Shown here in pieces: positions 1,945 through 42,796 of a stretch of DNA of 64,000 bases (the stretch's first letter is position 1; each line of letters opens with the position of its first letter). Both the position numbers and the translations under genes were made by a program. Location of the stretch: the NCBI GenBank assembly GCA_910580205.1, contig CAJTVP010000004.1, positions 1,519-65,518 on the forward strand. The letters are read 5' to 3'. Below the pieces are notes generated by a model that was not told where the DNA came from, ran no database searches, and saw only the letters and a list, made by a program, of their open reading frames with translations. The stretch is from an uncultured Eggerthellaceae bacterium (GTDB lineage Bacteria; Actinomycetota; Coriobacteriia; Coriobacteriales; Eggerthellaceae).

Positions 1945-3186
1945 ATGGCGCTCATTATACGAGATGCCCTTCTGCGGCGGTCGGTGATGACTGGTAATAT
2001 GAGCAATGAAACGCACCCGATACGAAAGACCCGAACGTTCTTGAAGTACATCGACGACGAAACATCTTTCGCGAAGTTCGCAGAGAAAGCCAGCCGCTCG
2101 CAGGTGCTGGCCATCGACACGGAGTTCTTGCGCGAGAAGACCTATTATCCCAAAGCATGCCTCATCCAGCTGGCCACCGATGATGACATAGCCATCATCG
2201 ACCCGCTCGCCGTGACCGACCTGGCGCCTTTGGCGGCCCTGTTGGAGGACGCCACCATCATGAAGGTCTTCCATGCCGCCACCCAAGACATAGAGATCCT
2301 GCTGCGCCTTTCCGGCGCCGTGCCGTCTCCCGTGTTCGACACGCAGATCGCCGCAGCGCTTCTGGGCTACAGCTACCAGGTGGGCTTGGGTCAGCTCGTG
2401 AGCTCCATCTGCGGCGTCACGCTCAAGAAATCCGATTCGTTCACCGATTGGTCGCGCCGCCCTCTCTCGAAAAGCCAGTTGGAATACGCGGCGGGAGACG
2501 TCACGTTCCTGCCGGAGCTCTATCTCTGCATGCGTAGGATGCTCCTTGAGAAGGGGCGCCTTGACTGGCTTGAGCCGGATTTCAAGGAGCTTGAGAACCC
2601 GGATCACTACACCACCGATCCCTACGAGCGGTTCCGTCATCTCAAGCGCGGCAATCAGCTCAATCGCCGTCAGCTCGCTTGCGCGCGGGAAGTGGCGGCG
2701 TGGCGCGAGAAGCGGGCGCAAGCGCTGGACATCCCCCGGAAATGGGTGCTCTCCGACGAGCAGGTGGTGGAGGCGTGCCGCAAGGAGGCCAGCAAGATCG
2801 ACGATCTCTACCTCATCCGCGGGATGCGGGAGAAGCTGCCCACGCGGGAAGCGCGGGAGGTGGCCGGGCTCATAGAGCGCGTGCTCAAGATGCCCGAAGA
2901 CGACCTGCCGGAGCTTGAGCGCAACGGAGGGAGCGAGCCCAACGTGGACAGCGCGCTCGATCTCATGCTGGCGCTCACGCGCGTGGTGGCGCGGGAGAAC
3001 GACATCGCCATGCAGACGCTCGCATCCACCGCCGATCTCACGAATCTGGCGCGCGGGCATCTGGAGGAATCGCGCTTGCTCAAAGGCTGGCGTCGGGCGC
3101 TCATAGGCGAGAAGCTCCTGCTTCTGCTCGAAGGCGGCCTCTCATTCAGGATCGTCGAGGGGGAGCTTGAAGTCAACAAGATGTGA
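1945..3186 (+). CDS. rnd: Ribonuclease D (DEDD 3'-5' exonuclease + HRDC)
   Basis: LAIDTEFLRE exo motif I, YAAGDV motif, HRDC-like C-terminal region. The true start may be ATG 1987 or 1999 instead of 1945. Confidence 0.8.
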   Translation: MALIIRDALLRRSVMTGNMSNETHPIRKTRTFLKYIDDETSFAKFAEKASRSQVLAIDTEFLREKTYYPKACLIQLATDDDIAIIDPLAVTDLAPLAALLEDATIMKVFHAATQDIEILLRLSGAVPSPVFDTQIAAALLGYSYQVGLGQLVSSICGVTLKKSDSFTDWSRRPLSKSQLEYAAGDVTFLPELYLCMRRMLLEKGRLDWLEPDFKELENPDHYTTDPYERFRHLKRGNQLNRRQLACAREVAAWREKRAQALDIPRKWVLSDEQVVEACRKEASKIDDLYLIRGMREKLPTREAREVAGLIERVLKMPEDDLPELERNGGSEPNVDSALDLMLALTRVVARENDIAMQTLASTADLTNLARGHLEESRLLKGWRRALIGEKLLLLLEGGLSFRIVEGELEVNKM

Positions 3187-9098: not shown

Positions 9099-10043
9099 AT
9101 GGCGTTTCCGCACAAGCATCTCATCGACATCACGGAATACTCGCGTGATGACATCATGCTCCTTTTGGAGACGGCCGCGAAGTTCAAAGAGGTGAACGAG
9201 CGGCGCATCAAGCAGGTGCCCACGCTGAAGGGCGCCACCATCGTTAACATGTTCAACGAGCCCTCCACCCGCACGCGCTCCTCGTTCGAGATCGCGGAGA
9301 AGCGCCTCAGCGCCAACAGCTTGAACTTCGGCGGCAGCTCCACCTCCACGGTCAAGGGCGAGAGCCTGTCGGACACGGTGGAGACGCTCTGCGCCTACAA
9401 GATCGACATGATCATCGTCCGTGACAAGCACGCGGGCGTGCCGCGCAAGATCGCGGACCTCTCCGGAGTGCATGTGATTGACGCCGGTGATGGCAAGCAC
9501 CAGCATCCCACCCAAGCCCTTCTGGACCTGTTCTCCATCTGGGAGGAGAAGGGCTCCTTCGAGGGGCTGAACGTGGGCGTCGTGGGCGACATCGCCCATT
9601 CTCGCGTGTGCGGCTCCCTCCTTCCCGCCCTCAAGATCATGGGCGCGAACACGGTGGCCATCGCCCCTCCCACGCTCCTGCCCGCCCGTCCGGACATCCT
9701 GGGGGCGGACGAGGTCACCTCTGACATCGACGGGGTGCTCCCCGACCTCGACGTGGTCTACATGCTCCGCGTCCAGCGCGAGCGCCTGGAAGGCGCGCCG
9801 TTCCCCAGCCTGCGCGAATACAACCAGCTCTTCGGCCTCACGCAGAAGCGCGACGCCCTCATGAAGCCCGATGCCATCGTCTGCCATCCCGGCCCGATCA
9901 ACCGCGGCGTTGAGCTTGACTCCTTCATGGCTGACCATCCTGACCGGTCCGTGATCTTGGACCAGGTCTACGCTGGCATCCTCGTTCGCATGGCCGCTCT
10001 CTATCTTCTTCTAGGAGGTTCCAACGATGGCATTGATGCTTAA
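9099..10043 (+). CDS. pyrB: Aspartate carbamoyltransferase catalytic subunit
   Basis: STRTRSSFE and HPGPINRG motifs. Confidence 0.95.
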   Translation: MAFPHKHLIDITEYSRDDIMLLLETAAKFKEVNERRIKQVPTLKGATIVNMFNEPSTRTRSSFEIAEKRLSANSLNFGGSSTSTVKGESLSDTVETLCAYKIDMIIVRDKHAGVPRKIADLSGVHVIDAGDGKHQHPTQALLDLFSIWEEKGSFEGLNVGVVGDIAHSRVCGSLLPALKIMGANTVAIAPPTLLPARPDILGADEVTSDIDGVLPDLDVVYMLRVQRERLEGAPFPSLREYNQLFGLTQKRDALMKPDAIVCHPGPINRGVELDSFMADHPDRSVILDQVYAGILVRMAALYLLLGGSNDGIDA

Positions 10044-11319
10044 GAACGCGCGCTGCATTGACCCGCAGGTGGGTTTGGATGAGGTGTGCGACATCCTCAT
10101 CCGCGACGGCAAGATCATGGAGGTGGGCCATGGCCTCTCCATGGAGAAGGGCGTCGAGCGCGACCTTTCCGGCAAGGTGCTGACGCCGGGGCTCGTGGAC
10201 ATGCACGTCCATCTGCGTGAGCCGGGCTATGAGCAGAAAGAGGACATCGCCTCCGGCACGCGCGCTGCGGCCCATGGCGGCTTCACGGCGGTCTGCGCCA
10301 TGCCGAACACCGATCCGGTCATCGACAACGCGGTCGGCGTTGAATACGTGAAAGCCCGCGCGAAGGATGTGGGCAAGTGCCGCGTCATCGTGTCCGGCGC
10401 GTGCACGAAGGGCCTCAAAGGTGAGATCCTGGCCGAGATGGGCGACATGCACGCTCATGGGGTCCGCGCGTTCACTGATGATGGCCATGGCGTGCAGGAT
10501 GCGGGCATGATGCGTCGCGTCATGGACTACGCCTCTCAGTTCGACTGCGTGGTCATGCCGCACTGCCAGGATGATTCGCTGGTGGGCGAGGGTCAGGTGA
10601 ACGAAGGGGTGGCCTCCACCCGGCTGGGGATGCTCGGCTGGCCTGCGGAGGGCGAGGAGCTGGAGATCGCCCGCGACATCGCGCTCTGCCGCCTGACCGG
10701 CTGCCCGCTGCACATCCAGCACCTGACCACGGCTCGCGGGCTGGACATGGTGCGCGCTGCGAAAGCGGAAGGCCTGCCCGTCACCTGCGAGGTCACGCCG
10801 CATCACCTCTTCCTCACCGAAGATGACATCACCGACGAATACCCCACCTCCCTCAAGGTGAATCCGCCGTTGCGCACCGCTGATGACGCGGTGGCGCTCG
10901 TGGAGGGCCTGGTGGACGGCACCATCGACGCCATCGTCACCGATCATGCTCCTCACACCGACTGGGAGAAGGACCGCGAGTTCGAACTGGCGCCCTTCGG
11001 CATGATCGGCCTTGAGACGTCTTTGGGCCTCGTGCTCACGAAGCTGGTGGATAACGGCATCATCACTTACGAGCGCATGATCGAGCTCATGGCGGTGAAC
11101 CCGCGTGGGATCCTCCGCGAAGAGCCGGTGCGCCTGGAGGCGGGGAGCGTCGCCGACCTCACGGTGTTCGATCCGGAGCAGACTTGGACCGTGGAGCGTT
11201 CGGGCTTCTATTCCAAGGCGGGCAACTCCGGCTTCCTCGGCGCGGAGCTCAAGGGCAAGGCGACCGACGTGTTCGTCGGCGGCTATGCCACCATGGAAGA
11301 TGGTGCGATCGTTGAGTGA
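10027..11319 (+). CDS. pyrC: Dihydroorotase
   Basis: DMHVHLREPG metal-binding motif. Overlaps the pyrB end by 17 nt. Confidence 0.9.
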   Translation: MALMLKNARCIDPQVGLDEVCDILIRDGKIMEVGHGLSMEKGVERDLSGKVLTPGLVDMHVHLREPGYEQKEDIASGTRAAAHGGFTAVCAMPNTDPVIDNAVGVEYVKARAKDVGKCRVIVSGACTKGLKGEILAEMGDMHAHGVRAFTDDGHGVQDAGMMRRVMDYASQFDCVVMPHCQDDSLVGEGQVNEGVASTRLGMLGWPAEGEELEIARDIALCRLTGCPLHIQHLTTARGLDMVRAAKAEGLPVTCEVTPHHLFLTEDDITDEYPTSLKVNPPLRTADDAVALVEGLVDGTIDAIVTDHAPHTDWEKDREFELAPFGMIGLETSLGLVLTKLVDNGIITYERMIELMAVNPRGILREEPVRLEAGSVADLTVFDPEQTWTVERSGFYSKAGNSGFLGAELKGKATDVFVGGYATMEDGAIVE

Positions 11320-12644
11320 GCCATCCACCACGCTGCTCTCCGGCACGTCGAAAGGGGTGCAAGCCCCGGCGGTGCTGGTGCTTGAGGACGGGACGGCCTT
11401 CCGGGGTCGTTCAGTCGGCGCACCGGGCGAAGTGTGCGGAGAGGCGTGCTTCAACACATCCATCGAAGGGTACTTGGAAGTGCTCACCGATCCGTCTTAC
11501 GCCGGCCAGGTGATCACCATGACCTACCCGCAGATCGGCAATTACGGCGTGTCCCTTGACGACGTCCAGCGCGCGCAGGTGTTCGCCCGCGGGCTGGTGG
11601 CGCGTGATGTGTGCCCCACGCCTTCAAGCTGGCGCTCCGAGATGCCGTTGCCTCAGTTCTTGCGCGAGCATGGCATCGTCGCCATCGAGGGAGTGGATAC
11701 GCGCGCCCTGGTCCGCCATCTCCGGGAGAAGGGAGCCATGGGCTGCATCCTGTCCACGGAGGATCTGGATGTGGAGAGCTTGCGGGCGAAGGTCCAGGCC
11801 GCACCCGCCCTTCAAGGACAGAACCTGGTCGAAGGCGTGTCTGGCGCTCCCATGACGCCTCAGTTGGGCGCGCCCGCTTCCCACAGCTTCGCGAAGCCTC
11901 CCACCCCGAAGGCTTCGCATCATGTGGTGGCTTACGACTGCGGCATCAAGGAATCCATCCTGGGCTCTCTGGCCGCTGCCGGCTGCCGCGTCACCTGCGT
12001 CCCTTGGGATGCGTCCGCCGAAGACGTGCTGGCGTTGGATCCCGACGGCGTGTTCTTGAGCAACGGCCCCGGAGATCCGGAAGCGGTCGCCGCCACGAGC
12101 GCGGCGGCTGCGGAGCTTTTGGGGCGCGTTCCCGTGTTCGGCATCTGCCTGGGCCATCAGATGCTGGGTCTGGCTGCGGACGGCAGCGCCATGAAGCTCA
12201 GCTACGGGCACCGCGGCGGCAATCATCCGGTCATGAACTTGATCACAGGCCAAGTGGAGGTCACTTCCCAGAACCATGGATTCGCCATCCGGTTCGACAG
12301 CTTGGGACCGCTCATCCCAGAGCTTTCCGGCGGCATGGCCGAGCACGAGGATGATCTGCGCGTCTGGGCCGAGCGGGGCATAGCCCCTGTCGTGCAGAAC
12401 GAGCGCTTCGGGCGCATCCGCCTTTCGCACGTGAGCCTGAATGACGGCACGCTGGAGGGCCTGGAGTTCCTGGACGCCCCCGCCTTCTGCGTGCAGTACC
12501 ACCCGGAATCATCTCCCGGACCCTCGGATTCGCGCTATCTGTTCGCCGCGTTCTCCGATCTCATGGATGGCGGCGCGGACGTGCTCTCGGTGGACATCGC
12601 ATCCGACCGGCTTTCTGGTTGGAAGCTGGGAGGGGAGGCGGACC

Positions 12645-33110: not shown

Positions 33111-34336
33111 ATGCGCGCGGCGCGTACCGGATCGTGAATCTGGGGTGCAAGGTCAACCGCGTTGAATCCGACGCTGTGGAAGCTGCGTTCGTCCGGGCGG
33201 GATTCGCCGTTGCTGAAGAGGGCCATGCTGACATCGTCGTCGTGAACACATGCACGGTCACCGGCGAGGCGGAGAAGAAGACGCGCAAAGCGGTTCATCG
33301 CGTCGTGCGGGATGAGCCCACAGCGCAGATCATCGTGACGGGCTGCTCTGTCGCCATCCACCCTGAGGAGTACCGCATCGGCGAAGACCGCATCCGCATC
33401 GTTCCCAAAGCTGAGCTGTTCTCTGCGGTGCGCGAGCTGTGCGAAGGTGCACGGGAGGAGCACGTCTCAGGCGAATCTGCGACAGCTGTTCCAAGAGCGG
33501 CGATGCGCCGTGGCGTCAAAGTGCAGGATGGGTGCGATCGGACATGCACGTACTGCATCGTGCACGTGGCCCGTGGCCCCGCGTCAAGCGTTCCCGCTGA
33601 CAAGGTGATCGAAGAATGCCGCGCTCTCATGGATGTGGGCATCCCGGAGGTGGTGCTCACAGGCATCAATCTGGGAGCGTACCAGGATGGTGGAACGGAT
33701 TTGGCGCTGCTGCTCCGCCGTCTTCTCAAGGAGCTTGAATTGGAGAAGAGAAGGAGCCGGTTGCGGCTTTCCAGCATCGAGCCGCAGGACGTGGCCGATG
33801 AGCTCATCTCCGTGATCGCCTCTGCGGAAGGGTCCATCTGCCGCCATCTCCACCTGCCGCTCCAATCAGGTTCTTCCAAAGTGCTCCGTGAGATGGATCG
33901 CGGCTATGATGCCGAAGGCTTCGCGGATGTGGTGCAGCGCCTTCGCACGGCTATCCCTATGGTGAGCCTGTCCACGGATATCATCGCAGGATTTCCAGGT
34001 GAGACCGATGAGGATTTCGAGGAGACCTATGAGCTGTGCCGTCAATCGCGTTTCATGAAGCTCCACGTGTTCCCGTATTCGATGCGTGTTGGCACGCCTG
34101 CAGCTGCGCGGGAGGACCAGGTTCCTGCTGCTGTGAAAGCAGAACGCGCAGCCCGCTTGCGCGCGCTTTCAGATGAGCTTTGCTTGGAGGACCTGGCGTT
34201 CCGCGCGGGGACGGAGGAGGTCGCCGTGGTGGAGTCCGCCCGCGTCGCCCGAACGGAGAGCTACCACGTTCTCACACCTCCTGCTGGTGCCTCCATAGGC
34301 GCTCTCATCCCCGTGCGCTTTTCGACAACCCGATGA
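33107..34336 (+). CDS. mtaB: tRNA methylthiotransferase (MtaB-like radical SAM, UPF0004 + TRAM)
   Basis: VVNTCTVT N-domain Cys and CDRTCTYC radical SAM motif. Position after rsmE matches the Bacillus yqeU-yqeV arrangement. Confidence 0.8.
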   Translation: MNARGAYRIVNLGCKVNRVESDAVEAAFVRAGFAVAEEGHADIVVVNTCTVTGEAEKKTRKAVHRVVRDEPTAQIIVTGCSVAIHPEEYRIGEDRIRIVPKAELFSAVRELCEGAREEHVSGESATAVPRAAMRRGVKVQDGCDRTCTYCIVHVARGPASSVPADKVIEECRALMDVGIPEVVLTGINLGAYQDGGTDLALLLRRLLKELELEKRRSRLRLSSIEPQDVADELISVIASAEGSICRHLHLPLQSGSSKVLREMDRGYDAEGFADVVQRLRTAIPMVSLSTDIIAGFPGETDEDFEETYELCRQSRFMKLHVFPYSMRVGTPAAAREDQVPAAVKAERAARLRALSDELCLEDLAFRAGTEEVAVVESARVARTESYHVLTPPAGASIGALIPVRFSTTR

Positions 34337-34648
34337 TCTCGCCGCGATTATGCGCGCCGGTTAATCTGTCCGTTCTGCGTTCGTGTGCCGGCGCCTAACT
34401 ACACGCGGTGCTTCTCCAACATCCGCAACGTTGCCAAACGGCTGATGCGCAGGATGCTCCTTCTGTTCGCACGGTTGACCATCGGCGCCCATTGGGCGCG
34501 CTACGAGGTTTCCCCTGGATCAAAAACAAACCGGGCGTCGTAGCGCGGGCATTGCCCGCCAACGGGGGTGATGCGCACACGGATGCTGGGTATGCGCATC
34601 CGCCGCTTGGGAATGTTTCTTTTTTTGGAGGTGCCGTCGTTGCGGCAC

Positions 34649-35299
34649 TCAGTTCTCGCTTTGTGCCACAGGGATGCGGATCACCGTCTTCAACCGGTCT
34701 GGCGCCACGCGCCTTGGGTCTGACAGGTAGATCTCATGGTGGAGCCGTTTCGGCCCCATATCGAAGCGATACCCTTCTCCTTCGGCATAAGACCGCATGG
34801 TTTCGATGGTCGCGGGCTCGTCATCATAGGATCCGATGTGCATGGTCTGGACGCATAAGCCTTCGTCAACGGTGAGCATCTCGGCAGGGGAGGGGTCCAG
34901 CCCCTTTTTGCGAGCGACTTCTTCTTTGGCCCAGGCGAACACCTCTGGGGTCACGAACTCAGGAAGACGGATGCAGCTGATCCAAGACAGGTCGCTTTTG
35001 CGCCCGTTTCTGATGGCGCTGCTGAACACGTCTTCATCCGGGATATCCCAGAATCCCTCTAAGGGAGGCACGACATAGGCGAAATATCCGGCTAGGTCTT
35101 TACCGGCTTTCGGGGACATCTTGATGGTGTAGGAAAGCCCATAGAGCAAGGTCAGTGCGTGCTGATAGGCCCCGTCTTCCTCGTTGGGATCCCCTTTGCC
35201 GCGCACAGCCACATAGGTGATGGGAGGGACCGTGATGAGCTCAGGCGTCTTCGGCGGTTGATAGAGCTCCTTGCATTCCTTCTTGTAATCGAACGCCAT
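34649..35299 (-). CDS. GyrI-like small-molecule-binding domain protein
   Basis: 216-aa ORF with a duplicated beta-alpha-beta-beta pattern and a typical YVAVRGKGDP...EGFW motif. G+C is slightly below the core genes. Confidence 0.7.
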   Translation of the reverse strand: MAFDYKKECKELYQPPKTPELITVPPITYVAVRGKGDPNEEDGAYQHALTLLYGLSYTIKMSPKAGKDLAGYFAYVVPPLEGFWDIPDEDVFSSAIRNGRKSDLSWISCIRLPEFVTPEVFAWAKEEVARKKGLDPSPAEMLTVDEGLCVQTMHIGSYDDEPATIETMRSYAEGEGYRFDMGPKRLHHEIYLSDPRRVAPDRLKTVIRIPVAQSEN

Positions 35300-35579
35300 G
35301 GAGCATCCTTCCTGAAAAGCTGATTTTAAGATTCTGTACTACCAAGCTTACATCATCAGCTCTCGTTCGGCTTGTATATCGCCATCCATGACGAGAAGAA
35401 AAAAGGAAAGACAATCATCGAACCGGGACTTAGAATGAAAAGTCTGCCAAATGAGGCGATCATAAGAGAGGTTAAGAAGCGGACGTTCTCCGTATCCTCT
35501 GCTGAAAAGCTGCTTTTCATCAACAAATACGGTGAGGTCATTGACATCAAATATGTGTCTCTTTAGTGTCTTTCTTGAT

Positions 35580-35630
35580 AAAGCGCCAGAAAGGTACGTT
35601 AGCTACCTGCTCGGGCGCTTTCTCATTTCT
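35580..35630. terminator. Long imperfect hairpin with T-rich tail (candidate terminator)
   Basis: AAAGCGCCAG..AGGTA-CGTTAGC-TACCT..CGGGCGCTTT followed by CTCATTTCT. The reverse strand also gives TTTAT after the stem. Confidence 0.35.
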
Positions 35631-35868
35631 GTAAAACGTCCAAACGGTGCATATTGAACCTACTTCGGGCGCTTTGCATTGTCTGCCCTAAACGGAGCAG
35701 GATGAGCACGGACGTCTTCGGCGGTTGTGGTGTCAAGGAATATCCGCTCGACAGTTGGAAAGGCTCACGAGAATCGGCAGATGATCGGTTCGCAAAGTAT
35801 GTGAGAATCACCGCGCTGTGTGATCGCGCCCATTTACCTCGTCTCTTCGGGTGCAATGTCAAAAGTCA

Positions 35869-37872
35869 TTAGTGGTGACGCCAGTTTGGACATCCTGTTC
35901 CTTTTTGTAGATGAGCTGGGTGTGCTTTCCAAATATTTCCACACACTTTGCAACGAACCTTTATTTTCGTTCTCGATGTTTGATATTCTTCTAGAAGCTC
36001 AATATCGGGATTATTCAATTCGACTCTTTCTTTGAACTCTGTAGGTGAAACTCTGCGCTTTAGGCCTCTATTGCGCTTCGAGCATGTGGGGCAACCTTTT
36101 GATTGCAAGACCCTATTTGGACGGGCGCGCCATATATTTCCGCAGTTAGCGCACCGAAACCTAATCTCAGTATTGCCATGAGTATAGTTTTCAAGCGCTT
36201 CAATATCGGGATGTGTTTGTCGGAGTTCCTTCATGAAATAGTCATGAGTCTTTGTTTGCTTTTTCGCTCTAGTTTTATTTGCGCATTTCGGGCAATCGTG
36301 TCCCTGAAGAAGGTTCTGTGGTGTTGCAGTCCATTCATGCGCACACACCCGGCACCTTGCTTCTATCTTCGTTAGGCGATCGACATATCGTCCTACAATC
36401 TCTATCGTTGAGCTAACATCGGCCATTGCTTCTACAAATTCGTCATGAGACATGCGCTTTGAGTACCTTAATGCATTTGCAATGATTTCCTTCCATTGCG
36501 CTTCCTTAATATCGGGCTTTAGATCTGGATTGCAGAGGAGAAGAATCTTGCTGACTATCTCTTTCAATGTTTTATATCCCGATTCTTCGGCAAGTGAGCC
36601 ACTATATAGAAAGAAGTCCTTTTCCTGTGCAGCTTCAATGGTGGAAATAGGTACAGTGTCGTAAATGACGATGAGGCGGATTCCTTTAGAGTGACAGATC
36701 TCCTTTTTCTTTTTATCTTCGGCAAGCTTGTCCTTATGCCAAAACCAAGCGCCTGGTTCTATGGCAATCTGGTATTCAGGGATATAGATATCGAGCTCTC
36801 GTCCAATGGTCTTTTTATCGCGGGATACAACTTTTCCCTTACCTAATACATATTCAAGCGCAAAGAAAAGGAATTGCTCCATAAATGATGTTCCGGATAT
36901 CGCGCATCTCGGACAACCGCTTCGAGTTAATAATGACTGAGGAGCAGCTATCCATTTATTGTCACAAATCTTGCAATGGAACTCCAATTTCGTATGGCTG
37001 TTTACATACTTACCCAACGGTTCAATATTTGGATTAACTTGATTTAGCTCCTTAATAAAATCATCATGCGATTTACTCAGCATTTGTGCAATCTTTTCTT
37101 TGCGGCATCCGGGACAACCAGAGGATCTTAGTAAATCAACAGGAGCCTTTTTCCAATTACTGTTGCAAACACGGCAATAACAATCCATCGGCGTAGCTGA
37201 ATCAATATATTCTCCGTGAATCTCAAGAGTGGGAAACTTTTCTGCAGCCATATGAAAAAAACGTTCGGCTCTTTTCTTTTTCATATCCCTTTTGCGGCAT
37301 AAGGAGCAATGGCAGTTCTTCTCAAGTGCAGATGCAATAGAAGTCCACTCATGTCCGCATACCCCGCAACGACACGATATTCCATCATGCGCAGTAATAT
37401 ATTCACTCAACAATTCGATATTAGGGTTTATGACATGGATTCTATTTGAAAACTCTTCATGCCTGATAGGTGTTCTTCCTCGCATTTTTTTTCTTGCGCA
37501 GAGAGGGCAACCATGCCCTTTTCTGAGCGTGCTCGGATTTGCATCCCATTCGTTGTTACAGATTTCACATCTACAAAGAATTTTATGCTTCGTATCTTGA
37601 TACATCCCCAATAAAGTCACATCTGGAAGAACTCCTTTTATCTCCGCTTCAAACTCCTCATGCGACTTCTTGCTATTACGATATCCTGAACAATCAATAC
37701 AACCAGCACCGTGAAGCAAATTGCCTGCATTAGCGCTCCAGATACGATTGCATTTACTGCATTGCACTTTAACGTGTTTTTGAACGCCTTTGTATAATCC
37801 TAAGATCTTGATACTGGGGTTGACCTCTTTCATCTCTGCAACAAACTGATCTTGCGTTCTCTTAAGCGCCAT
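35869..37872 (-). CDS. Eight-fold zinc-ribbon repeat protein (DUF4379-like modules) with central Vsr/DUF559-like PD-(D/E)xK nuclease domain
   Basis: 667-aa ORF behind a strong AGGAG RBS. CxxC...(G)CPxC pairs at aa 38/61, 102/125, 169/192, 233/256, 300/323, 507/530, 574/597 and 641/664, with a period of 64-67 aa. Core at aa 325-405: SFMEQFL...ELDIYIPEYQIAIEPGAWFWH...KGIRLIVIYD. Confidence 0.75.
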   Translation of the reverse strand: MALKRTQDQFVAEMKEVNPSIKILGLYKGVQKHVKVQCSKCNRIWSANAGNLLHGAGCIDCSGYRNSKKSHEEFEAEIKGVLPDVTLLGMYQDTKHKILCRCEICNNEWDANPSTLRKGHGCPLCARKKMRGRTPIRHEEFSNRIHVINPNIELLSEYITAHDGISCRCGVCGHEWTSIASALEKNCHCSLCRKRDMKKKRAERFFHMAAEKFPTLEIHGEYIDSATPMDCYCRVCNSNWKKAPVDLLRSSGCPGCRKEKIAQMLSKSHDDFIKELNQVNPNIEPLGKYVNSHTKLEFHCKICDNKWIAAPQSLLTRSGCPRCAISGTSFMEQFLFFALEYVLGKGKVVSRDKKTIGRELDIYIPEYQIAIEPGAWFWHKDKLAEDKKKKEICHSKGIRLIVIYDTVPISTIEAAQEKDFFLYSGSLAEESGYKTLKEIVSKILLLCNPDLKPDIKEAQWKEIIANALRYSKRMSHDEFVEAMADVSSTIEIVGRYVDRLTKIEARCRVCAHEWTATPQNLLQGHDCPKCANKTRAKKQTKTHDYFMKELRQTHPDIEALENYTHGNTEIRFRCANCGNIWRARPNRVLQSKGCPTCSKRNRGLKRRVSPTEFKERVELNNPDIELLEEYQTSRTKIKVRCKVCGNIWKAHPAHLQKGTGCPNWRHH

Positions 37873-38000
37873 ACATCGACTCCTACATTTATTGATTCAA
37901 GGCGTAATCATAAGACAATTTTGAGTAAATTGAGTATTCTCTACAAGACCGTCTCTGTTGGGTCTTATCAGAGTTCTAACAAATTGAAAGAGGATTTATG

Positions 38001-38145
38001 CCGATCATACTAGACCCAAAAACAGACCCAAAACGTGATTCTGTCCCCCAGGAATCAAAAAGGACAGGAGCGAAAATAACTCCTGGCCTCGGCATTCAAA
38101 TGGCGGGATGTACGAGACTTGAACTCGCGACCTCCGACGTGACAG
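38001..38145. repeat. Direct repeat copy A (tRNA-Asp 3' part + terminator-like flank), partner of 41492..41638
   Basis: 38101-38145 is identical (45/45) to 41594-41638. 38001-38100 has about 8 mismatches and 1 indel versus 41492-41593. Weaker similarity extends about 40 nt further left. Confidence 0.85.
38101..38145 (-). pseudogene. 3' 45-nt fragment of tRNA-Asp (anticodon loop to CCA), att scar
   Basis: Identity to the intact tRNA breaks exactly at the 5' edge of the anticodon loop (CTGTCAC). The upstream sequence cannot form the anticodon stem. Confidence 0.85.
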
Positions 38146-38343
38146 AAGGGAGTTCGTTCGATATCGCACTCTAGATTCTTCGTTAGGATCGTCTTATAAG
38201 AGTTGATTCTTTGTACGTTCGACAACCACAAATAGTACCTCTGAACAGGTATTTTATTATCGTTCTTCAGGATTGCGAAAGTTATCTTGATGGATATGCC
38301 TCTCATGTTTAAGGCGCTCACCGCTTGATGCTCAAACCAAGTT

Positions 38344-38371
38344 AGCCGTTTAAGCCGTTTAGGACGGTTTA
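38344..38371 (+). repeat. Tandem 9-10-mers AGCCGTTTA AGCCGTTTA GGACGGTTTA
   Basis: Read directly. Lies 8 nt upstream of the third CCCAAAAACAGACCCAA motif copy. Confidence 0.6.
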
Positions 38372-38549
38372 AGTTGAACCCAAAAACAGACCCAATTTTG
38401 TTTTTAGCGAGATTGGAACCAAATATGCTATCTGATAATGAGTTGCATGTCCTTTTTCAAATCTTTTGAAAAGTAATGGAGTCATTTCAGTATTGCTATG
38501 CTGAACTATAATTTCTTGCAAACCACATCTAGCGTGTTAGGGAAAGCCA

Positions 38550-39614
38550 ATGTCTGAAGAGCAAAATAATGTATTGAATGACCGTGAGCTTGATGAACTG
38601 GATAAGCTGAAAGCTAAATATGAAAAAATGACTGAACCAGGCATGCTTCAGAAAGCTGGAGATGTTATCGGTTCTATTATTCCGGCACCAATCAAGGACA
38701 CTGTCAACAATATTGGGGAAACTATTACTGAGCAACAATTCTACGAGGAAGCTATGCAGATAGTTGCACAAGGCTTTAATGCGCTTGAAGAGCAGGCTGC
38801 AAAGGTTACTATCAGCAAAGAAACCGTAGTTAAAAGAGCAAATGAATATATAGACGGTAGAACAATCTCATCCATTCAAGAGCTTTGCTTTGCAAGGAGT
38901 TACGAAGTAGCAAAGATTGCGGATTCGGAAAAGATACCTAGCCTGTTATCAGCAACCGTTGAAGGTGGAGCTACGGGATTCCTTGGTTTTGTTGGCATTA
39001 TTCCTAACATCGTTACGAGTACATTCTGCTACTACAGGGCTGTTCAGTCTATTGCTGTATCTTATGGATATGATGTGAGAGACGATCCAAACGAACTCAT
39101 GATAGCTAGTGAGGTATTCACGAGCGCCATGTCGCCACGTTCTAGCAAAGCAGGAGAGATGGCTGGCATAATCGGAAAGCTAATGCTGATTAGCGAAGCC
39201 GAAGCTGTAAAGCAAACGATAAAAAAGGGATGGACAGAGATGGCTGCCTGTGGAGGCATACGTCTTCTGTTAACTCAGATGCGCGCATTAGCTCATAAAG
39301 CTGCAAAAAAGGCGCTAGAGAAAGCAGGAAAAGAAGGACTCGAAAACTCTGTTTTTAGAAGTATTCTAGAGCAAATTGGTAAGCGTCTTGGGCAAAAAGC
39401 AGTTCAACGTGCAGTTCCGTTTGTATCCGCAGTCATTGGTGCTTTTTTTGATACTGGCGAGATGAACAAAGTCATTACATTCGCAGATACGTTTTATAGG
39501 AAAAGATTTATTCTGGAGAAGGGAATGCGTCAGGCAGAATTTAATGCGCCAGAAGCTATGACTATTTTGCCTGAATGCACTAATGAAGAAAAAATGACTT
39601 CTTCAGACGAATAG
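38550..39614 (+). CDS. EcsC family protein (orphan)
   Basis: GGATGFLGFVGIIPNIVTSTFCYYRAVQSIAVSYGYDVRDDPNE and AVPFVSAVIGAFFDTGEMNKVITFADTFYRKRF closely parallel the two conserved blocks of B. subtilis EcsC. Confidence 0.85.
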   Translation: MSEEQNNVLNDRELDELDKLKAKYEKMTEPGMLQKAGDVIGSIIPAPIKDTVNNIGETITEQQFYEEAMQIVAQGFNALEEQAAKVTISKETVVKRANEYIDGRTISSIQELCFARSYEVAKIADSEKIPSLLSATVEGGATGFLGFVGIIPNIVTSTFCYYRAVQSIAVSYGYDVRDDPNELMIASEVFTSAMSPRSSKAGEMAGIIGKLMLISEAEAVKQTIKKGWTEMAACGGIRLLLTQMRALAHKAAKKALEKAGKEGLENSVFRSILEQIGKRLGQKAVQRAVPFVSAVIGAFFDTGEMNKVITFADTFYRKRFILEKGMRQAEFNAPEAMTILPECTNEEKMTSSDE

Positions 39615-39703
39615 TTTTGGCTTTCTCATTGGCACAAGCTGTCCTATTTTAAAACCACAATCTACTACACAAGATGAGTATTCACTCAAAATACTTCCTG
39701 CAA

Positions 39704-40543
39704 TTAGCCGAACAGAATCCTCGGTTCGCAAGGTAAATCATTTACCTCTATACATCTGAGAATCAACTTATGAAGTAAAGAGGCAGTGGACTCAACTGCA
39801 TTCTCGTTTTTTACAGTTCCCGTATGAACTGCCTTAGACCTGTCGTCATAGAGCTTTTTGATTGCGTCATACTCATCCATTTCACCATTAAGAAACTTTG
39901 ATGCAAGAAGACTAATCCTAAATCGCAATTCAGCCTGCACCCCAAACAATGTCTCAATTCCAGCCCACAATATTGCAAGTTGCACAGATGGACGAACACT
40001 TTGCTTGTAGCTCCATAAGGCATTGACCGCATTAGCGAAAGCTGGTTTTTCCATTAGATCTGAAGCTGAAATAAAAACAGATTCAATGAAAGTACATTCC
40101 TCTGGTGTTACTGTTTCAATAGAGCGAGGCAAAAACAAACGAGACGACATGACGACATTCATGAACGATGACTGATTAAATTGGTCTGCACTAACATTGC
40201 ATTGCAGATTCCAGTAAATCTCTTTATGTAAGAGAGCGGACAGCAAACAAATATCGGTTTGGGCGTTCCAGAGATTGGTTACGAGAGAGCGACCATCAGG
40301 AGATTTTACTTTTATATGGAGTTGAGCTCTTGTTGATCTTAGTGTTGCTATTACAATGCCAAGATCTATTTCACTCTTACTTCCATGCTTCATTATCGAA
40401 TCTATCATCGCATCAGGGTCAGGTTGGCATTCTATTGGCTCTAAAACGGTATTTTGATTAAGTCTGATTTCTGAGCCAGGTTCAATACCAATAAGATAGA
40501 GATACCCTTCCGTTTCGCCCGTTTTTGCACGAATTGATGTCAT
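39704..40543 (-). CDS. Hypothetical protein with C-terminal HEPN-like domain (Rx4H motif)
   Basis: 279 aa. KKLYDDRSKAVHTG (R235-x4-H240) sits in an all-helical C-terminal 130 aa, as in abortive-infection HEPN families. The N-terminal 150 aa are unrecognised. Confidence 0.65.
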   Translation of the reverse strand: MTSIRAKTGETEGYLYLIGIEPGSEIRLNQNTVLEPIECQPDPDAMIDSIMKHGSKSEIDLGIVIATLRSTRAQLHIKVKSPDGRSLVTNLWNAQTDICLLSALLHKEIYWNLQCNVSADQFNQSSFMNVVMSSRLFLPRSIETVTPEECTFIESVFISASDLMEKPAFANAVNALWSYKQSVRPSVQLAILWAGIETLFGVQAELRFRISLLASKFLNGEMDEYDAIKKLYDDRSKAVHTGTVKNENAVESTASLLHKLILRCIEVNDLPCEPRILFG

Positions 40544-40618
40544 GAAGTCCCCAAACTGCCCCGAACGGATAAACTATCCTGGTTATCTTTTTACAATTAA
40601 GCGCACCTTATGGGCTAT

Positions 40619-41275
40619 TTAACTCTTGGTTTCCATCCTGTCACGCATATCGCTCAGGATCTCGCCTTTATACGAGAAATATGCAGGTCCTTGCCTTGAT
40701 ATGTCATCAGCAAACAAGGATTCAGCTAATGCGGACAATGTCATGGTTTGACCGTTGTGTTCGACATGCCTGTCGTCGACAACTGTTGCAATGACTCTTT
40801 TATCCTTTACAAAGACCACTTCCTCGCCAGCATCAACACCTACCATGCTGAACTTGAATGGTGGCCTGCGCTTACTGACAGCCTCAGCAACCATTTCGTC
40901 TTCGACCTCTTCTTTGGTCGGCTTCCAACGCTTTAGGTTCGCTTCTGTGCCAGAGATTCTCGCAATAGCTTCGAGAAGATCAAATGCAGCTTCAGGAGTC
41001 ATAGCAAAAAACTCCCGAACTCGGGTTTTGCCTTTGTATTCTTCAATAGTATGCAGATCGGGATTAAGGTCATCTATTAACTTGTGCAGAGATTTATCGG
41101 TAAGTTTAGAAGTAACGGAATAAGTAGCATAAACGCGAAATGCGAATGGTACGGCAGATGACGCATTTAGCTGGCTCAGTCTCTTCTCGACATCAATCGC
41201 AAAACCGATTTTTACATAATCAGGAAAGCTTGGATTGGTAAAGATATAGATGTAGCCTGATTTCTCTTTCGTCAT
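40619..41275 (-). CDS. T5orf172 / GIY-YIG superfamily nuclease-domain protein with small C-terminal domain
   Basis: GYIYIFTNPSFPDYVKIGFA...KRLSQLN...VPFAF...REFF matches the T5orf172 (MUG113) pattern. C-terminal PPFKFSMVGVDAGEEVVFVKD...HNGQTMTLSALAESL module. Confidence 0.8.
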   Translation of the reverse strand: MTKEKSGYIYIFTNPSFPDYVKIGFAIDVEKRLSQLNASSAVPFAFRVYATYSVTSKLTDKSLHKLIDDLNPDLHTIEEYKGKTRVREFFAMTPEAAFDLLEAIARISGTEANLKRWKPTKEEVEDEMVAEAVSKRRPPFKFSMVGVDAGEEVVFVKDKRVIATVVDDRHVEHNGQTMTLSALAESLFADDISRQGPAYFSYKGEILSDMRDRMETKS

Positions 41276-41491
41276 TATTGTCTGCCTATCTATTTATCTA
41301 AAAATGCCACCGTGAACTATGTAATCTCGATGTAAGACTAACCCTTATTTTATTACACGTAGAAATCACAGCCACTCAATGTAGGTCATTCTTCCTCGAG
41401 CATTCCCGCACCATCAAGTATCTCATTGTTTGGTGAGATCTCCGATGGGTCTCATCAGAACCCTAACGAACCGGGAGTTGTCTGACTTATT

Positions 41492-41669
<178 letters not shown>

Positions 41670-41725
41670 GTGAAAGCTGCCGAGTTATTATAAACAGAAC
41701 AGACGAAAGGGACAAGAAGAATTTT

Positions 41726-42796
41726 TCAACGGATGATCCCGCCGCCCAAAACGGCGTCTCCTTCGTAGAGCGCGCAGGTCTGACCGGGGGCTGCGGCGAA
41801 CGCAGGCTCATCGAACTCCACGGTCGCGCGGTTGCCGTTCACGGTGAGGGTGCACGGGACGGCTTCCATGTTGTACCGGAACTGCGCGCTGCAACGGATG
41901 GGTCCCCCAGGAGCCTCAGCGAGCAGGTTCACATCCACGAGCTCCACGCGCTCCGTCAGCGCATCCTCATGGCTCCCGAGCATCACGACGTTGGCATCGG
42001 CATCCTTGGCGCGCACATAGGCTGGCTTCCCTAAAGCCACGCCGAGCCCCTTCCGTTGGCCGATGGTGTAGAGATGCGCGCCCTCATGCTGGCCGATGAT
42101 GCGCCCATCCGCATCCAGGATATTCCCCGGCCGCGTGCCCAGATGCTGTTTGAGATCTTCGGTGACCGAGCCGCAGATGAAGCAGATATCCTGGGACTCT
42201 TCGCGCACCGCCACCGGCAAGCCCGCTTCTGCGGCCTGCCGTCGCACCTCATCTTTCGAAAGCGCGCCCAAGGGGAAGGTAACGTGTCTCAGCGCATCCG
42301 CAGGGATGCGGCTCAAGAAATAGCTCTGGTCCTTGCGTCCATCCTCCGCGCGCAGCAGCCTCACCCGATCACCCTCAGCGGCAAGCTGCGCGTAGTGGCC
42401 CGTCGCCACGTGCCCGCATCCCAGCTCAGAAGCCATCTCAAGCATCACGCCGAACTTGATCGCCCGATTGCAGGCGACGCAGGGGTTGGGCGTGAGCCCG
42501 CAACGGTAAGCCTCATAGAACGGGCCTTTCACCAACGCTTCGAACGCCTCTCTGGCATCCAAGACCTCATGGGGGATGCCCAACGTCCGGCAAACCTCTC
42601 GCGCATCGGCCACGTTGCGCTCATCATCCGGCGTGCCCAAGATCATGGTGGCGCCGATGCAGCCGCGCCCTTCCCGGACGAGCCGCAAAGCGGCCACGCT
42701 CGAATCCACGCCGCCGCTCATGGCGACGCATGTCTGCACAGCGCTCACTCTGGCCGACCGTCCTCTCCTGGCGCTTCGATTGGGGTATCTTGTCAT
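41726..42796 (-). CDS. mnmA: tRNA 2-thiouridine(34) synthase MnmA
   Basis: VAMSGGVDSSVAA PP-loop. Start set at ATG rc 42794-42796 (MTRYPN...). The ORF-track start at 42865 adds a Ser-rich leader. Confidence 0.85.
   Translation of the reverse strand: MTRYPNRSARRGRSARVSAVQTCVAMSGGVDSSVAALRLVREGRGCIGATMILGTPDDERNVADAREVCRTLGIPHEVLDAREAFEALVKGPFYEAYRCGLTPNPCVACNRAIKFGVMLEMASELGCGHVATGHYAQLAAEGDRVRLLRAEDGRKDQSYFLSRIPADALRHVTFPLGALSKDEVRRQAAEAGLPVAVREESQDICFICGSVTEDLKQHLGTRPGNILDADGRIIGQHEGAHLYTIGQRKGLGVALGKPAYVRAKDADANVVMLGSHEDALTERVELVDVNLLAEAPGGPIRCSAQFRYNMEAVPCTLTVNGNRATVEFDEPAFAAAPGQTCALYEGDAVLGGGIIR

Follow-up and report, generated by a model that had tools for sequence, protein, structure and literature searches.

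A candidate homing-endonuclease-type gene, encoding a Vsr-like core between two zinc-ribbon arrays, beside tRNA-Asp of an Eggerthellaceae bacterium

The stretch analysed here, called the window below, comprises 64,000 nucleotides (nt) of contig CAJTVP010000004.1 (positions 1,519 to 65,518) from the assembly GCA_910580205.1 of an uncultured Eggerthellaceae bacterium. It contains a complete nuclease gene encoding a protein of 667 amino acids, in which five zinc-ribbon modules precede and three follow a Vsr/EDxHD-like core (35869..37872, minus strand; detected as an open reading frame (ORF) and by matches to Pfam and PHROG 559). The position had been given correctly in the original prediction, which was made without database searches, but the strand has to be corrected to minus. 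Modules 1-5 form the N-terminal array (amino acids 1-324; 36901..37872, minus), as delimited by the module anchors, the module alignment and an AlphaFold2 (AF2) model. The nuclease core (amino acids 325-470; 36463..36900, minus) is defined by conserved columns, a profile match to the structure 3r3p, AF2 and Foldseek, and modules 6-8 form the C-terminal array (amino acids 471-667; 35872..36462, minus), for which CxxC anchors, the module alignment and the endings of homologues were used. The gene is part of a 6.3-kb island with a GC content of 38-48% (about 42%) in a chromosome of 62% GC, and this island abuts a tRNA-Asp gene.

The first CxxC motifs of the eight modules are found at amino acids 38, 102, 169, 233 and 300 in the N-terminal and at 507, 574 and 641 in the C-terminal array. 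The spacing is thus 64-67 amino acids, with an interval of 207 amino acids separating the five N-terminal from the three C-terminal units. Units cut at these anchors align without gaps, show a mean pairwise identity of 31% (range 20-40%) and share the consensus F..E...NP.IE.L..Y....K I..C..C...W.A.P..LL.G.GCP.C. A hidden Markov model (HMM) of the family module detects each of the eight with E-values of 1e-19 to 1e-28, and the repetition is evidently far beyond chance. The protein matches the Pfam family DUF4379 ('probable treble-clef zinc finger') with 109 bits over six stretches (cut-off 24.5) and the CapR homology domain with 97 bits over five stretches (cut-off 24.2); DUF723 is among the precomputed matches. 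Anchors, gap-free alignment, Pfam and module HMM therefore bear out the original reading of eight tandem modules of about 65 amino acids arranged 5+3 around a core, and the proposed resemblance of the ribbons to DUF4379 proved to be a true Pfam match.

In total, 15 CxxC motifs are present. Seven modules have the form CxxC-x16-CxxC, and module 8 reads CxxC-x16-C-P-N-W-R-H-H-stop. The predicted pattern ending in GCPxC hence applies to modules 1-7 but not to module 8, which is devoid of the fourth Cys. Four putative zinc ligands per module are arranged in two knuckles, in module 8 as CxxC-x16-C-x4/5-H, and all ribbon Cys residues are invariant in a full-length alignment of 13 sequences. A 3' truncation of the gene was considered as an explanation for the deviating end and rejected, as the GCPNWRHH-stop ending is conserved in three homologues with 70-72% identity (P0002, P0003, P0006). 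Because of this common terminus, and because other members of the family possess internal modules ending GCPN[YW][RQ]xH, module 8 is best read as a native variant of the Cys3-His type. In 851 family modules, conservation is found at the Cys, Trp, Pro and Gly residues and at hydrophobic positions. The most variable positions lie in the first helix, in the loop before the first knuckle and around the Trp, and they are candidates for the positions determining specificity.

A census of module copy number showed that two-sided arrays are the rule among the 120 closest homologues. Copy numbers range from 1+3 to 4+10, most often 3+4, 4+3 or 3+3. The prevailing arrays on viral contigs are N-terminal only (3+0, 4+0). 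That the array split into an N- and a C-terminal part is the norm in bacterial chromosomes, with a very variable copy number, is new here.

The segment between the arrays contains SFMEQF...ELDIYIP...AIEPGAWFWHKD...GIRLIVIYD. In an alignment of the inter-array segment of 31 homologues with 32-47% identity to the query, S329, E359, D361, P365, E372, H379 and K389 are invariant and E332 and D386 nearly so. Candidate catalytic residues, all encoded on the minus strand, are the near-invariant E332 (36877-36879) and D386 (36715-36717) and the invariant D361 (36790-36792), E372 (36757-36759), H379 (36736-36738) and K389 (36706-36708). Thereby, both residues originally predicted to be catalytic, D361 and E372, are invariant in this alignment.

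The best sequence match of the core profile in the PDB is the catalytic domain of the homing endonuclease I-Bth0305I (3r3p, E=0.0044, partial coverage of the domain), in which AIEpGsWfWHk..D..K...GirLitI of the core is paired with AIEVNGVYW(H213A)SK..D222..K...GYRVLTI. A profile was needed for this, since a search with the single sequence of the whole protein gave noise and 3r3p with E=0.97. The catalytic set of I-Bth0305I consists of E170, D196, N208, H213 and D222 (PMC3239194). The same paper, which defined the EDxHD type, equates H213, D222, D196 and E170 with H69, D97, D51 and E25 of Vsr. HMMER aligns H379 with H213 and D386 with D222. From the spacing, E332 and D361 may be equated with E170 and D196 (distances of 29 and 11 residues, compared to 26 and 10 in I-Bth0305I), and G374 occupies the x position of the set. 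The AF2 model of the core derived from the 31-homologue alignment reached a mean predicted local distance difference test score (pLDDT) of 93.7 and a predicted template modelling score (pTM) of 0.88. Its top PDB match in Foldseek was Vsr of E. coli (1vsr; probability 0.90, template modelling score (TM) 0.45-0.50, E=0.096). Other high matches with the restriction-endonuclease fold were PvuRts1I, Mus81, BsoBI, Hef/XPF and Can2, interspersed with unrelated folds. No HNH family of Pfam was found at E<=0.1 in the scan of the whole protein, nor did Pfam detect any NUMOD or helix-turn-helix (HTH) domain; the core is flanked by zinc-ribbon modules. We assign the core to the EDxHD type, as a remote member resembling Vsr, and not to the HNH enzymes, as indicated by the profile match and the model. 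The proposed Vsr/DUF559-like nuclease core thus stands with regard to the fold and the 3r3p match, but the Pfam models for Vsr and DUF559 themselves are not matched. Likewise, the segment of amino acids 325-405 is present as described, but the core continues to about amino acid 470, with one more strand and two more helices.

For the whole protein, AF2 was run with the 13-sequence alignment, in which each homologue had been cut back to the 5+3 layout around the core. The module blocks were predicted with a pLDDT of 85-92, the linkers with low confidence, and the pTM was 0.34. Each module is predicted to fold into an 11-residue helix, a strand, a zinc-knuckle CxxC...CxxC hairpin and a short helix. 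The full-length model looks like beads on a string with flexible linkers. A rigid or superhelical array of ribbons forming a DNA-binding surface, as previously suggested, finds no support in this model because of the poorly predicted linkers and the low pTM. Foldseek with the full-length model revealed no solved structure with the 5+3 arrangement of ribbons and core. Its sole PDB match below E=0.001 was chain E2 of 6yxx, an assembly intermediate of the mitoribosomal large subunit of Trypanosoma brucei (E=2.4e-4, 417 aligned columns), followed by two chains of the trypanosome small subunit. Chain E2 may represent a eukaryotic protein made up of comparable zinc-ribbon repeats, or the match may be an artefact of the repeats.

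The protein belongs to a large family. It matches PHROG 559 at 1e-108 and also PHROG 681 and 3339. Searches with the whole protein yielded 363 homologues at E<1e-5 among the candidates and, with tblastn, matches in 532 phage genome records. The core profile detected 17,666 representative clusters at E<=1e-3 (270 at 1e-30), at least 529 loci on viral contigs encode a relative of the core, and BFVD contains 243 predicted viral structures at E<=0.001, from phages as well as giant viruses. A recent study described proteins with CapR/DUF4379/DUF723-like repeats and an EDxHD/Vsr-like nuclease as a large, previously unrecognised group of homing endonucleases (PMC12350094, 2025). Those proteins carry 3-5 modules, all of them N-terminal, followed by a C-terminal nuclease, and occur in phage introns of groups I and II. 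In the original prediction the architecture had been considered unknown. This does not apply to the combination of CapR/DUF4379 ribbons with a Vsr-like nuclease, which has been published and has hundreds of members in PHROGs and BFVD, but none of these is biochemically characterised.

We found a homologue of this kind in phage PBS1 (L087, 3492-4976, 494 amino acids; tblastn 6e-19), also matched by the module and the core HMMs, in which three modules are followed by the core (3+0). A group I intron (RF00028, 84 bits) directly follows its gene, and an adjoining group II intron contains a second member of the family; both introns split an RNA-polymerase gene. Because of this association with a group I intron in the RNA-polymerase gene, the family is associated with homing endonucleases, as already recognised bioinformatically, and the homing-endonuclease-like reading of the original prediction gains support. 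The PBS1 homologue possesses about 210 additional residues C-terminal to the core, which do not form ribbons and match no Pfam family. The ORF in the group II intron (2231-3139) shows a classical DUF559-like FDF...IEYDG..H motif and escaped detection by the core HMM. The nuclease domains within the family are apparently rather diverse. PHROG 559 and many RefSeq phage records are labelled as HNH endonuclease. This is likely a misannotation, since the HNH families of Pfam are not matched and the core is Vsr-like. A literature search on CapR itself revealed nothing relevant.

The intact tRNA-Asp gene (GTC; 41593..41669, minus; ARAGORN, Rfam RF00005 with 67.5 bits) is the apparent insertion target and forms the head of a tandem island. 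A displaced copy of its nucleotides 33-77, i.e. from the anticodon loop to CCA, is located at 38101..38145 (45 nt, minus) as a direct repeat of 41593-41637. Its tRNA part is identical to that of the intact gene, and it lies 229 nt upstream of the start codon of the nuclease gene. This fragment marks the tRNA-proximal end of the nuclease unit. It is followed by the left end of the unit, with a terminator-like hairpin (38085-38065) and a TTTTGGGTCTGTTTTTGGGTCT-type motif (37993..38100, minus), 91-96% identical to 41484-41592; the latter is the corresponding sequence downstream of the intact tRNA. Altogether, a direct repeat of 153 nt (37993-38145 and 41484-41637) comprises nt 33-77 of the tRNA and about 108 nt downstream of it. 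As this repeat duplicates the 3' part of the tRNA, the island consists of two tandem modules, in the order tRNA-Asp, T5orf172/PDC-S57, unknown gene and EcsC-like gene, then tRNA fragment and nuclease gene.

The neighbouring low-GC module between the intact tRNA and the fragment (38146..41592) includes a gene with a T5orf172/MUG113 domain (40619-41275, minus), which matches the PADLOC candidate PDC-S57 at 1e-90, a gene of unknown function (phrog_28161; 39704-40543, minus) and an EcsC-family or PDC-S29-like gene (38550-39614, plus). Relative to the tRNA, the T5orf172 gene is placed and oriented just as the nuclease gene is relative to the fragment. Downstream of the nuclease stop codon, the 570 nt up to a GyrI-like gene (35300-35868) have a GC content of 42-48% and contain no tRNA fragment. 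A called ORF of 63-64 amino acids at 35356-35566 is open on both strands. The distal end of the nuclease unit seems to be lost or replaced. A 34-nt repeat hinted at a duplicated fragment of the GyrI-like gene at 35600-35860, which was rejected because similarity at the protein level is absent. Rfam did not detect an intron at 34000-42500.

An 18-nt motif, ACCCAAAAACAGACCCAA, occurs three times in the island (38014-38031, 38378-38395, 41505-41522): it follows each tRNA 3' end at a distance of about 70 nt and is found once more close to the far end of the 38146-41592 module. On the tRNA strand it constitutes a tandem TTTTGGGTCT-like pair. A related 24-mer is present near both ends of a unit in another genome (L004; 9712-9735, 12065-12088). 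These sequences could be binding sites of the ribbons or of a recombinase, or merely conserved end sequences.

Comparable units were found in other genomes. In a genome of about 49% GC with other neighbouring genes (L004), a frameshifted copy of the nuclease gene with 72% nucleotide identity lies 350 nt past an intact tRNA-Asp. The unit of 2.8 kb, in which the nuclease is the sole substantial gene, is closed by an exact 45-nt copy of nt 33-77 of this genome's own tRNA-Asp. Here, an element-borne terminator lies behind the restored tRNA, and the native terminator lies behind the displaced fragment. At a second locus (L088), an intact homologue with 72% identity is located between tRNA-Asp segments at both ends of the contig. 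At a third (L006), a tRNA-Asp fragment, the nuclease gene, a second fragment, a module of a Mrr-like and an unknown gene and a third fragment follow each other.

This arrangement is not confined to tRNA-Asp. The core alignment led to 80 bacterial genomes, in which 18 loci possess a co-oriented tRNA gene at most 1.5 kb upstream of the family gene. The tRNA density is 0.20 per kb in the first upstream kb compared to 0.026 per kb beyond 3 kb, so that tRNA genes just upstream of family genes are about 8-fold enriched over the background of the same loci. Within the upstream 3 kb, 23 of 24 tRNA genes are on the strand of the nuclease gene (3 of 18 distally), and many tRNA species are represented. 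No such association was seen at the viral loci encoding relatives. Several repeat-bounded units span 1.8-3.1 kb and consist essentially of the nuclease gene alone between duplicated 3' parts of the tRNA, e.g. 1.8 kb at a tRNA-Val (repeat of nt 60-77, L031), 1.8 kb at a tRNA-Leu (nt 63-85 plus 12 nt, L043) and 2.7 kb at a tRNA-Arg (nt 32-75, L032); at a tRNA-Met the repeat comprises nt 59-77. In a Ruminococcus sp. metagenome-assembled genome (L062, 7446-11370) the unit directly follows a gene for an ABC-transporter ATPase, and behind the nuclease gene the final approximately 160 nt of the ATPase gene, beginning at the LIVAHRL motif and including the stop codon, are present a second time. Over 115 nt the two copies are nearly identical, and upstream of this stretch their identity is about 70%. 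Since, in the 22 tabulated loci with a tRNA association, the GC content of the nuclease ORF is below that of its locus, and since the island in the window has about 42% GC in a 62% GC chromosome, a foreign origin of these genes is indicated.

No recombinase gene was detected in the island of the window or within 10 kb of its nuclease gene. At the other loci, none of the 20 ORFs located between tRNA and nuclease gene or just downstream encodes a tyrosine or serine recombinase according to Pfam scans. They comprise one IS3 transposase, one relaxase, a second family member, fragments of restriction enzymes, housekeeping genes and unknowns. The minimal units are too small to hold an integrase. The position of these genes just downstream of tRNAs in the same orientation, and the minimal single-gene units without a recombinase, are reported here for the first time. 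Repeat length does not scale with module number: eight modules with 45 nt and four modules with 18-23 nt had hinted at such a relation, which was rejected because of seven modules with 18 nt (L016) and six with 44 nt (L032).

Some loci deviate from this layout. Two family members lie back to back (L012; 7827-9260, minus, and 9434-11398, plus) downstream of a tRNA-Arg/tRNA-Pro pair, which suggests a repeated invasion of one site or a competition of elements. At two loci the 5' part of a tRNA (Ser nt 1-36 in L059, 79-114; Ala nt 1-22 in L067, 3156-3177) is duplicated just upstream of the intact tRNA. The polarity of these duplicates is opposite to that of the other units. A MobA/VirD2-type relaxase gene (L020, 11640-12878) adjoins a 5+3 member 111 nt past a tRNA-Ser, and some copies of the family may ride on mobilisable elements.

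The copy in the window appears intact and potentially active. Compared to the intact homologue in L088, it shows a nonsynonymous divergence (dN) of 0.18 at saturated synonymous divergence (dS), with a dN/dS of about 0.08 for the N-terminal array, and intact copies are under strong purifying selection. The copies in L004 and L006 are disrupted, and in an allele 99.95% identical to that of the window a 1-nt indel splits the gene into 138 and 548 amino acids (L091/L092; SRR35899520, SRR35899511). The gene is evidently being lost within one population. Homing endonuclease genes pass through a life cycle of invasion and decay, and the combination of constraint and frequent recent loss would fit this cycle.

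Taken together, we consider it probable, if with modest confidence, that the gene encodes a free-standing enzyme of the homing-endonuclease type, belonging to the family that combines a CapR/DUF4379-like ribbon array with an EDxHD/Vsr-like nuclease. Judging from the loci compared, the chromosomal gene sits in small foreign units at the 3' parts of tRNA genes, in this subfamily at tRNA-Asp from nt 33. These units carry a replacement for the 3' part of the tRNA along with a terminator of their own, and the displaced 3' part is left as a direct repeat. The ribbon arrays would recognise DNA to either side of the cut over a long, asymmetric site, and the core would cleave the unoccupied allele at the pseudo-palindromic stem-loop of the tRNA gene (anticodon or T arm). 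It would probably do so as a dimer like I-Bth0305I, which is known to act as a dimer on a pseudo-palindrome (PMC3239194). Recombinational repair from the occupied allele would then copy the unit in, and the replacement 3' end would keep the tRNA functional. Within a tandem array at tRNA-Asp, the copy in the window would represent the second unit, with its distal repeat lost.

Several observations weigh against this interpretation. The Foldseek E-value for 1vsr is just 0.096, and neither Vsr (PF03852) nor DUF559 (PF04480) of Pfam is matched at E<=0.1 by the whole protein. A single active site per monomer might merely nick DNA. The searchable literature contains no biochemistry, i.e. cleavage, DNA binding or metal content, for any member of the family. 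Starting in the anticodon or T loop and reaching the tRNA's 3' end, the repeats match the att layout of tyrosine integrases (att-type direct repeats at tRNA genes are noted in PMC2853133), and the same repeats also bound modules without the nuclease, namely 38146-41592 in the window and the Mrr module in L006. Unlike L004, L006 and L088, the nuclease unit of the window lacks a distal tRNA fragment. Finally, the searches via the GyrI flank and in metagenomes revealed no empty site and no donor/recipient pair: with the exact GyrI-like flanking protein, every contig found carries the nuclease gene, and a metagenome scan for close relatives gave three distant matches only. Mobility is therefore deduced from structure only.

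A further, tentative possibility is that the units are autonomous single-gene elements. The two-sided ribbon array would read a specific tRNA gene, the Vsr-like core would cut the anticodon or T stem-loop, and the element, of a type not described so far, would spread by repair-mediated copying and bring along a substitute for the 3' half of the tRNA and a terminator. The composition of the array might then set the target tRNA, and a targeting that does without a recombinase would mimic att sites.

The chief rival explanation, a live one although less likely than homing, is that the nuclease gene is the cargo of mini-islands that, like cis-mobilisable elements, are flanked by att sites and lack an integrase. 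A tyrosine integrase encoded elsewhere and acting in trans would recombine the att sites in the anticodon or T loop and stack the modules in tandem, the nuclease being a selfish, addiction or inter-element competition gene. The start points of the repeats, in the anticodon loop (Asp 33, Arg 32) or the T loop (Val 60, Met 59, Leu 63), and their extension to the 3' end would be expected in this case. The tandem modules with the same repeat and other cargo in the window and in L006, the short motifs recurring near unit ends like the arm sites of integrases, and the relaxase in L020 point in the same direction. On the other hand, no integrase is encoded among the 20 neighbouring ORFs of the other loci or within 10 kb of the gene in the window, and in L062 the target of the unit is a protein-coding gene, hit in its 3' end at a conserved ATPase motif. 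Single-gene units of 1.8-2.8 kb have been found repeatedly, at various tRNAs and in various phyla, always with the nuclease gene first after the tRNA and co-oriented, a pattern that random decay of islands would not yield. Moreover, homologues are bona fide intron-associated homing endonuclease genes.

It appears improbable that the protein is a domesticated defence nuclease whose array recognises phage or other foreign DNA, whose core restricts it and whose position at the tRNA reflects a hot spot for defence islands. Neighbouring genes are indeed of the defence-island type, with the PDC-S57/T5orf172 and the PDC-S29-like EcsC genes here, Mrr_cat in L006 and MmeI fragments and DUF4238 elsewhere. 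The purifying selection on intact copies and the label 'restriction enzyme' on some viral homologues would also agree with defence. However, PADLOC-DB 2.0 returned just a weak generic 'HEase' match (E=0.01, amino acids 357-406), no partner methylase or immunity gene is present, and close copies are repeatedly frameshifted even inside one population, all of which makes a pure defence role less likely. In addition, the family is most abundant in phages, introns included.

It is very improbable that the protein is a catalytically inactive DNA- or RNA-binding protein, such as a regulator or maturase-like factor, that retains only the nuclease fold: homing endonucleases have been co-opted as binding proteins and no family member has a demonstrated activity, but homologues with 33-47% identity show no or almost no variation at the candidate catalytic residues, all of which are present here.

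For annotation, these results imply that hundreds of phage and bacterial proteins now listed as 'HNH endonuclease', 'HypA-like zinc finger protein' or 'hypothetical' are Vsr/EDxHD-type nucleases with zinc-ribbon arrays. If homing of the chromosomal copies needs no recombinase, it could be a route by which small islets arise and become stacked at tRNA genes, and some 'integrase-less' tRNA islands would need reinterpretation. The ribbon module, naturally shuffled in numbers from 1 to more than 10 at either flank of a compact nuclease, is a candidate for a programmable DNA-binding scaffold, and the tRNA-specific members would represent natural pairs of protein and target from which a recognition code might be derived. 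Should the units indeed be autonomous elements, the ribbon of about 65 amino acids would be a new, naturally reshuffled unit of DNA recognition with engineering potential.

Regarding known systems, C2H2 zinc-finger arrays, TALE repeats and I-TevI-type NUMOD linkers offer a functional analogy, as in these, too, small tandem modules of variable number are combined with a nuclease. They are not homologous to the ribbon modules. With Vsr and DUF559 the core shares the fold and the His-containing variant of the PD-(D/E)xK active site. In contrast to these proteins, the core matches neither of the Pfam models, has no mismatch-repair context, and zinc would be bound in separate modules instead of the nuclease domain. 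I-Bth0305I (3r3p) has the E, D, H and D positions and the AIE.G..WH...D.K...G.R...I block in common with the core, at a remote similarity of E=0.004. Its N-terminal DNA-binding regions are of the NUMOD/HTH type and contain no zinc, whereas here eight ribbons are present on both sides of the core.

The repeats from a tRNA loop to the 3' end, the tandem accretion and the low GC content are shared with tRNA islands of tyrosine integrases and with cis-mobilisable elements. Such islands carry an integrase; here there is none, and units are as small as 1.8 kb with the nuclease gene alone. For the layout there are two precedents. In fungal mitochondria, for example those of Endoconidiophora resinifera, free-standing homing endonuclease genes are followed by a partial C-terminal duplicate of cob or atp6 (PMC6279837), and restriction-modification genes have been found inserted with long target duplications (PMC2853133). 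Both show the same succession of target gene, nuclease gene and displaced 3' fragment without any other mobility gene, although with other nucleases (LAGLIDADG, GIY-YIG or restriction-modification) and in other hosts, and the targets here are mostly tRNA genes. A further known system consists of the proteins described in PMC12350094. Their modules are N-terminal only, their nuclease is C-terminal and their genes are intron-borne, whereas the window encodes a 5+3 array around a central core with an additional helical extension, in a free-standing chromosomal gene beside a tRNA gene. Common to both are the same ribbon modules of about 60 amino acids and the Vsr-like core, with direct homology to the PBS1 protein.

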